Origin: a virus
Taxonomy: Duplodnaviria; Heunggongvirae; Uroviricota; Caudoviricetes
Direction: 5' to 3' (one strand)
IMG/VR virus record: IMGVR_UViG_2579779049_000020
DNA length: 5,053 nucleotides
Every line of letters starts with the position of its first letter. Position 1 is the stretch's first letter. Positions 3,455-3,619 of the stretch are shown in pieces. The notes beneath the pieces were generated by a model, which saw nothing but the letters and a program-made list of their open reading frames with translations, was not told the DNA's origin and made no database searches. The position numbers and the translations under genes were made by a program.

Positions 3455-3467
3455 AATAACCAAAGTG

Positions 3468-3604
3468 AACTTTGGGGTGTGGTGAAGGGTTCATGGACGG
3501 GAATATGTCGCACGTAAAGCGGCGAGGCCTGCGGGACTATTGCCGAATTGAAGTAGGCCGAAACAGGTCGAAATGGGTCTCCCACCTACCACACCACCAA
3601 AGTT
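3468..3604 (+). other. Long-range RNA duplex in the N leader
   Basis: 3468..3484 (AACTTTGGGGTGTGGTG) is complementary to 3587..3604 (TACCACACCACCAAAGTT) with one bulged A, giving about 17 bp enclosing roughly 100 nt and ending 4 nt before the N Shine-Dalgarno. A competing local hairpin CCAAAGT/ACTTTGG (3460..3475) shares the 5' arm. Confidence 0.35.
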
Positions 3605-3619
3605 CATCAGGAGGTCTAT

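Follow-up and report, generated by a model that had tools for sequence, protein, structure and literature searches.

A long-range helix in the N leader of a 933W-type phage, probably a version of the lambda processing stem, and the exchangeable cassettes within it

The window analysed here, the whole 5,053-nt stretch of phage DNA, carries a 165-nt leader between nutL and the N gene, which raises the question of what this RNA folds into and how the fold bears on the synthesis of N. In lambdoid phages, Shiga-toxin phages included, N is made before any other regulator, and its amount contributes to the choice between lysis and lysogeny and, further downstream, to toxin expression. In the passages of PMC5725501 that cite Wilson 1997, 2002, lambda N is described as translationally repressed by N and the Nus factors at nutL, about 200 nt upstream, and the intervening leader RNA as highly structured, with RNase III modulating the N-mediated translational repression. 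A passage of PMC5371410, citing Steege 1987, places the N leader among the RNase III targets of lambda.

The locus and its long-range helix

The window holds the immunity region, reversed relative to the lambda map, of a Shiga-toxin lambdoid phage of the 933W type, and the leader region (3330-3640) is 100% identical to that of Stx phages, for example vB_EcoS_P27 and Stx2a_F723. In identical phage records the counterpart of 3620..4003 is annotated as N. The features surrounding the leader are as follows.

1049-1756: cI-type repressor (Pfam: Peptidase_S24 plus HTH)
3329-3366: OL1/OL2 operators, transferred from the annotation of the near-identical record GQ499365
3342..3370, + strand: PL-like promoter from a consensus scan; -35 TTGATA (3342-3347), 17-nt spacer, -10 CATTAT (3365-3370)
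about 3377-3379, + strand: predicted PL transcript start; the downstream bases align with the lambda PL +1 sequence, AUCAGCAGGACGCA
3388..3454, + strand: nutL, coordinates transferred from the GQ499365 annotation
3420-3435, + strand: nutL spacer hairpin GAUUC-GAAUAU-GAAUC, present in the minimum free energy (MFE) structure
3440-3454, + strand: boxB hairpin GCGCUGACAAAGCGC, present in the MFE structure
3610-3614, + strand: N Shine-Dalgarno (SD) GGAGG, from the sequence, 2 nt 3′ of the helix
3620..4003, + strand: antiterminator gene N, 127 aa (Pfam PF25694 N_peptide, 57.5 bits, cutoff 27.9)

The nutL spacer hairpin at 3420-3435 has 5 bp and sits between the presumed boxA region and boxB; Salmonella P22-like phages keep its counterpart with an altered loop.

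The original prediction placed in this leader a duplex of 3468..3484 with 3587..3604, about 17 bp long with one bulge. This duplex is present in the sequence, where AACUUUGG-GGUGUGGUG (3468-3484) is complementary to UACCACACC-A-CCAAAGUU (3587-3604) with A3596 bulged, and folding adds three pairs to give a helix of 20 bp, 3465-3484 with 3587-3607, interrupted by that single bulged A. Its roughly 100-nt closed domain likewise stood (102 nt, 3485-3586), whereas the predicted gap of 4 nt to the SD shrinks to 2 nt with the extended helix. The helix appeared in the MFE and centroid structures of both sub-windows that we folded, 3455-3640 and 3377-3660, with a fold z of -3.2 in each and none of 200 dinucleotide shuffles folding equally well. 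A partition function over the full leader (3378-3650) gave pair probabilities of about 1, at least 0.99 for 17 of the 20 pairs and 0.86, 0.95 and 0.31 for the terminal three, and the duplex alone was worth -32.8 kcal/mol; folding thus bore out the proposed helix. A generic inverted-repeat finder missed it because of the bulge. The parts of the helix, with the local alternative to it, are listed below.

3460..3475, + strand: local alternative hairpin CCAAAG-UGAA-CUUUGG, -6.4 kcal/mol
3465..3475, + strand: lower stem, 5′ strand, GUGAAC + UUUGG; pairs with 3597-3607 and ends at the recurring junction ...UGG/G (the slash marks the junction)
3476..3484, + strand: upper (acceptor-like) stem, 5′ strand GGUGUGGUG, GU-rich; pairs with 3587-3595; counterpart in the lambda leader GGUGUGUG
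3587..3595, + strand: upper stem, 3′ strand UACCACACC, from folding and covariation
3596, + strand: bulged purine, A here and G in some relatives
3597..3607, + strand: lower stem, 3′ strand, CCAAAG + UUCAU, from folding and covariation; CCA stands where the 3′ CCA of a tRNA would be

Between boxB and the 5′ base of the helix there are about 10 nt, and between its 3′ base and GGAGG there are 2 nt. Sequestration of the SD by the helix was unsupported: no base pairing between helix and SD was predicted, and predicted SD accessibility was similar with and without the upstream leader. Because the helix does not occlude the SD by pairing, an effect on translation, if any, must be steric or exerted via nutL.

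The sequence CCAAAGU occurs at 3460-3466 and again at 3597-3603, and the hairpin strand 3460-3465 duplicates the CCAAAG of the 3′ arm. Local pairing of the 5′ arm with this upstream copy had been noted before, and we found both the copies and the hairpin (3460-3475) to be as proposed. When nascent transcripts with ends between 3480 and 3600 were simulated, the local hairpin had a probability of 0.85-0.99; it persisted with the upper stem formed (transcript end 3595) and was lost once 3604 was included. In the full leader its probability was 0.00, and the best structure containing it was 9.4 kcal/mol worse. Among other phages, 27 of 33 contexts have an upstream segment that pairs with the 5-6 nt directly preceding the junction, an exact reverse complement of the final 5 nt lies upstream in 11 of 21 (about 0.5 expected), and in nine of these 11 the next base also pairs with position -6, counts that are all inflated by shared ancestry. 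These nine include a switch from CCAAAG:CUUUGG to CCAAAC:GUUUGG that leaves a G-G mismatch in the long helix. The leader L199 has UGUGG as its 5′ arm and CCACA as its upstream copy, with a 3′ arm that still reads CCAAA. Despite shared ancestry, these compensatory cases argue that the hairpin itself is under selection.

The original prediction had suggested that the leader might act as a two-state switch. The duplicated CCAAAGU, the upstream copy of which is conserved and covaries with the 5′ arm, would suit an equilibrium, riboswitch-like exchange between local hairpin and long helix; however, with the hairpin at essentially zero probability in the full leader, an energy gap of 9.4 kcal/mol and no evident ligand or factor, we regard such a switch as very improbable and have dropped it. 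On these folding models the local hairpin is better read as a sequential alternative, transient or post-cleavage.

Conservation of the helix and its lambda counterpart

We gathered related leaders by three routes. Searching IMG/VR with the two core arms as a pattern (retrieval a) gave 124 matches, or 43 distinct elements, whose interiors of 90 to 120 nt were of many unrelated types and lay in 40 distinct flanking contexts. A search with just the 5′ flank, CCAAAGTGARCTTTGG (retrieval b), recovered leaders preceding the same N start, ATGACACGCAGA, in which the upper stems differ in sequence and each is fully paired with its own partner save for an occasional G-U or mismatch (GGUGUGGUG/UACCACACC, GAUGCGAUG/CAUCGCAUC, GAUUGGAUG/CAUCCAAUC, GGUGAAU/AUUCACC and GAAAGCG/CGCUUUC). 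N-protein homology in bacterial genomes, a route in which no RNA pattern was used (retrieval c), led to leaders of Enterobacter, Lonsdalea and other genomes that carry the same frame.

An ungapped alignment, A3, was built from 55 distinct frames that had at least six of seven pairs at the junction top and the motifs T[TA]TGG and RCCAAAG. The proposed helix paired 76% of cells, compared with 36-41% when the 3′ partner was slid by one to three columns, and its covariation score was 0.357 against 0.06-0.10 for the slid versions, a value reached by none of 500 shuffles. The seven upper-stem pairs (A3 columns 18-24) contained no unpaired cell and showed 2-23 double changes each, and in the lower stem (A3 columns 6-16) four pairs showed 14-19 double changes each, the outer pairs covarying across phage classes. 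The junction-proximal UUUGG:CCAAA pairs did not vary in A3, an invariance that the entry rule partly builds in. The bulged purine is A or G in all leaders from retrievals b and c, and the adjoining G:C pair is present there as well, neither having been imposed in those retrievals. Covariation across homologues, named in advance as a check on the duplex, therefore came out strongly in its favour.

On folding, the lambda leader (NC_001416, PL +1 to N) formed the same basal helix, and its arm cores CUUUGGGGUGUG (5′, 12 nt) and CACACCACCAAAG (3′, 13 nt) are identical to those of the window, with a bulged A in both. The two stems share their location on the PL transcript, between the nutL boxB and the N ribosome-binding site, a lower stem that stops 2-3 nt before the SD, and an upstream copy, CAAAG(C) in lambda, able to form a local hairpin. 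They differ in that the lambda cassette is unrelated in sequence and about 88 nt long rather than 102 nt, the lower stems differ in sequence with compensating changes, and nutL boxB and N are of P22/933W type in the window and of lambda type in lambda. RNase III cleavage has been shown for lambda only. At its position on the PL transcript, the window's element is a duplex of about two helical turns closing a structured domain. It had been proposed as possibly analogous to the RNase III-processed structure of the lambda leader; identical arm cores in the same position take the relationship beyond analogy and support, as far as sequence comparison goes, homology to the lambda N-leader stem. The element is probably the form that the lambdoid N-leader processing stem takes in 933W-type phages, and thus of a kind already known.

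The closest cellular analogy, and an analogy only, is the E. coli rrn leader-trailer helix with its boxC, in which a nut-like element is also followed by a conserved GU-rich 5′ strand that pairs over a long range and encloses structured RNA. We take the phage 5′ arm to be the equivalent of lambda boxC. The rrn helix differs in enclosing the 1.5-kb 16S rRNA, in contrast to a 102-nt cassette without an rRNA match, in its boxC sequence, UCUGUGUGGG, and in having no downstream ORF under translational control. In rrn the conserved box and the RNase III site overlap, with structure outweighing sequence (PMC10250234), and it has been proposed that an antitermination complex brings the 5′ strand to its partner (PMC8632103).

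Exchangeable cassettes within a fixed frame

All leaders examined share the junction CUUUGG/G...C-R-CCAAAG, within which lie cassettes of at least 22 unrelated families, 45 to 205 nt in length. Clustering of interiors sorted 72 distinct cassettes into 22 families, and local alignment between the families compared was no better than for shuffles, leading us to reject sequence kinship among them. The N start of the window occurs with 12 cassette families. Conversely, the cassette family of the window comprises 22 variants at 85 loci in at least six different nutL/N (5′) contexts, and the genes downstream of it are several, lambda N and phi80 N among them. This shuffling of cassettes and contexts indicates that recombination joints coincide with the arms. 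In one case, on the chromosome of E. coli CAVP773 (L204 301-561), a different, longer cassette lies between the same flanks before the same N gene, making a leader of 261 nt versus 165 nt; it adjoins an IS66 transposase gene. The window's leader itself is found in 504 of 5426 complete E. coli genomes (about 9%) and is never annotated there.

The cassette of the window is 91-97% identical in phi80, VT2phi_272 and 683R2 despite their different nutL and N. An RNAalifold consensus of 15 variants gave the following predicted helices.

3485..3586, + strand: inner cassette, 102 nt
3489-3492/3501-3504, + strand: cassette helix P2, predicted, hardly varies
3507-3511/3519-3523, + strand: cassette helix P3, predicted, 5 bp with a 7-nt loop; one-sided G-U/G-C changes only
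3526-3531/3564-3569, + strand: cassette helix P4, predicted, with compensatory changes
3540-3544/3556-3561, + strand: cassette helix P5, predicted
3574-3577/3581-3584, + strand: cassette helix P6, predicted, hardly varies

A coding explanation was considered, as mechanical ORFs at 3472-3669 (+) and 3379-3585 (-) overlap the cassette. We rejected it: the cassette is swapped wholesale for unrelated sequences of 45-205 nt before the same N gene, which is incompatible with a conserved protein. Rfam searches returned no family at E<=1 and no rRNA match for the whole window, and over 201 nt (3440-3640) no tRNA or tmRNA at E<=10, only noise with nothing above 16 bits. T-arm and D-arm are absent from this cassette and ARAGORN was negative; the window's own cassette is not detectably tRNA-like.

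Several sister cassettes are. A canonical T-arm (GGUUCRANUCC) lies directly beside the 3′ strand in five of the 22 families, three of which also have a D-arm. L156 1552-1678 reached 39.6 bits on the Rfam tRNA model, above the gathering score of 29, and has 70 inserted nt where the anticodon arm would be. The tmRNA model aligned end to end with L074 5852-5955 (E = 2e-8, a score below the gathering threshold), placing G+1 at tmRNA G1 and ACCA at the tmRNA 3′ end. ARAGORN called L139 2758-2828 a 71-nt tRNA; at default settings it called none of 43 element variants, and with introns allowed only the 139-nt class (L072, L117), whose called ends are G+1 and the CCA of the frame. In the ARAGORN and Rfam alignments of sister cassettes, the bulged purine falls at tRNA position 73, the discriminator, and CCAAAG opens with CCA. 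The frame thus resembles tRNA and the tRNA-like domain of tmRNA (RF00005, RF00023) in the G+1:C pair, bulged purine and CCA at the junction, and the sister cassettes further in D- and T-arms recognised by ARAGORN or Rfam. The window differs from these domains in that its cassette lacks T-arm, D-arm and model match, its leader pairs with the CCA, and its acceptor-like stem has 9 bp. The terminal-stem arrangement is nevertheless present in the window (G3476:C3595, A3596, C3597-C3598-A3599, for G1:C72, purine 73 and CCA) and recurs in relatives retrieved without use of the 3′ arm. The lambda cassette and the 135-nt class have neither T- nor D-arm and match neither tRNA nor tmRNA, and Rfam searches of the lambda, MG40, SPN9CC, ST2-8624 and BIS08P22 leaders returned nothing relevant.

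A stem that is fixed around a freely exchanged interior, tRNA-like in several lineages, poses a choice between a structural spacer and a family of phage small RNAs, and the tRNA-like interiors point to a tRNA carried in the leader as the evolutionary source of the stem. In the searchable literature we did not find a description of a fixed stem with exchangeable, partly tRNA-like cassettes; full-text searches with leader sequence strings and for tRNA-like nutL elements returned nothing relevant, and papers on EHEC prophage sRNAs place sRNAs near PR′/Q and none in the N leader. The modular, tRNA-like frame around the known stem is apparently undescribed.

Some of these contigs carry further elements nearby. 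On the viral contig L139, 2493-3700 (-) holds a tandem pair of nut-frame-N modules. The first has a window-type N (120 aa) downstream of a 58-nt cassette and is followed by an 83-aa ORF, an intrinsic terminator, a boxB-like hairpin, the 71-nt cassette called a tRNA by ARAGORN, and a second N-like gene of 80 aa (MKAREIRKLERARQHKE...). About 500 nt downstream of the N-leader frame in L074, 5239-5344 (-) is RprA-like (Rfam RF00034, 56.8 bits, gathering score 70, E = 7e-5). Weak isrK-, istR- and Trp-leader-like matches of 24.7-29.4 bits, below gathering scores, occur at L176 5697-5808 (+) and L139 3812-3910 (-), the latter upstream of an N leader; each site ends in a strong intrinsic terminator, and the two are possibly small RNAs or immunity-region terminators.

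Probable processing of the leader and rival explanations

By analogy with lambda, the window's leader probably works through nutL-bound repression that RNase III relieves. The PL transcript, starting at about 3378, carries in order nutL (3388-3454), the GU-rich 5′ arm, the 102-nt cassette, the CA-rich 3′ arm and the N ribosome-binding site. With boxB and SD close together at the base of the helix, a complex of N, Nus factors and RNA polymerase at nutL could repress translation of N, as in lambda. RNase III, again extrapolating from lambda, would cut the duplex near the junction, at about G3475/G3476 and near C3597/C3598; we take the lambda cuts to lie at about +88 and +197, which would coincide with the junction. 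Such a cut would sever nutL from the N message, leave a short unstructured 5′ UTR of about 21 nt and relieve repression, coupling N synthesis to RNase III activity. The local hairpin at 3460-3475 would form first during transcription and be displaced after the upper stem has nucleated and CCAAAG (3597-3602) has emerged. It may thus act as a placeholder until the 3′ arm emerges, and after cleavage it may re-form as a blunt 3′-terminal hairpin of the nutL fragment. Since the 933W-type leader has the processing stem of lambda, the RNase III/N autoregulation model can be expected to hold for Stx phages.

RNase III has loose sequence preferences, so the model leaves the recurring bulged purine, adjoining G:C pair and CCA unexplained. 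These are what would be expected if the frame were a tRNA-type end-processing module, in which G3476:C3595, the bulged purine and CCA mimic G1:C72, R73 and CCA, RNase P, alone or together with RNase III, cuts the leader at G3476, and the upstream CCAAAG captures the 5′ leader, freeing the 3′ ACCA. The T-arms of five families, the L156 score above the Rfam tRNA threshold, the tRNA calls for L139, L072 and L117 and the tmRNA alignment of L074 all point this way, and with the local hairpin forced, the upper stem is kept while the 3′ ACCAAAG is mostly single-stranded. However, the cassettes of the window, of lambda and of the 135-nt class lack T- and D-arms and tRNA or tmRNA matches, and several of the tRNA-like cassettes have an acceptor stem of 9 bp, not 7 bp, which puts CCA off the canonical register. 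An experimental link had seemed to come from phi80 M3 RNA, which we took for a roughly 130-nt RNase P substrate and for the cassette's phi80 counterpart, but it proved wrong: the phi80 record puts a 60-nt M3 RNA (an oop homologue) at 36229-36288, well away from the N leader, and the cassette counterpart is at 32832-32961. Furthermore, a G occupies position -1 and RCCA is base-paired to the leader, which is strongly inhibitory according to the RNase P literature (PMC10731613). On this evidence we consider processing by RNase P unlikely.

A different emphasis would make the helix mainly a frame for delivery and excision, freeing the cassette (3476 to about 3598) to act in trans as a stable small RNA, the cargo varying by phage. 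The many unrelated families in one frame, with 12 families before one N start and one cassette in at least six contexts, are consistent with this, as are the compensatory changes in P4, the 91-97% identity across phages with unrelated nutL and N, and the presence in 504 of the 5426 E. coli genomes. Yet no Rfam family matches, a structured spacer that merely nucleates the helix would show compensatory changes too, and the range of lengths and apparent free replacement count against a single required cargo function, so that we would not expect this explanation to hold. Quite unlikely, in our view, is that the helix acts without cleavage, as a structural device that compacts the 240 nt of untranslated leader, protects the C-rich 3′ arm against Rho and places nutL beside the ribosome-binding site, with the conserved arms serving as short homology patches for module exchange. 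The positions of boxB and SD at the two helix bases fit such a role, the mosaic joints coincide with the arms, and leader structure may compact the nutL-RBS loop (PMC5725501), but recombination linkers fail to explain pairing strictly kept through double changes, and the homologous lambda stem is reported as cleaved in the passages of PMC5725501 and PMC5371410 cited above.

More speculatively, the nutL-N leader could be a general excision frame whose tRNA-like-ended junction is cut by RNase III, and possibly RNase P, to release interchangeable structured small RNAs early in infection, some of them true tRNA/tmRNA mimics. The window's cassette, which many Stx phages carry, would then be an unannotated phage small RNA with a function of its own, and the decoy hairpin would stabilise the nutL fragment. 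We find this broader picture doubtful; if the lambda cuts lie where we presume them to, the 3′ end left after cleavage may be one base short of ACCA.

Beyond the leader, the product of the gene that follows N, 4065-4688 (+), matches Pfam PF18757 at 240 bits and belongs to the Nmad5 (nucleotide modification associated domain 5) proteins. Between the two, in the -1 frame relative to N and overlapping its stop codon (4001-4003), 4000-4053 (+) encodes VTCVGRQKMKLGSKPLI followed by a stop, and VTCVGRQKMKLGSKPLI is 65% identical to the final 17 residues of lambda N. N homologues of Lonsdalea have the equivalent ...ITCRGTQK... stretch in frame. The lambda-like C-terminus in the -1 frame, with its in-frame equivalent in Lonsdalea, suggests that a frameshift has shortened the window's N while leaving the former C-terminal coding sequence intact, and this residual frame could be a fossil or a candidate for frameshifting.
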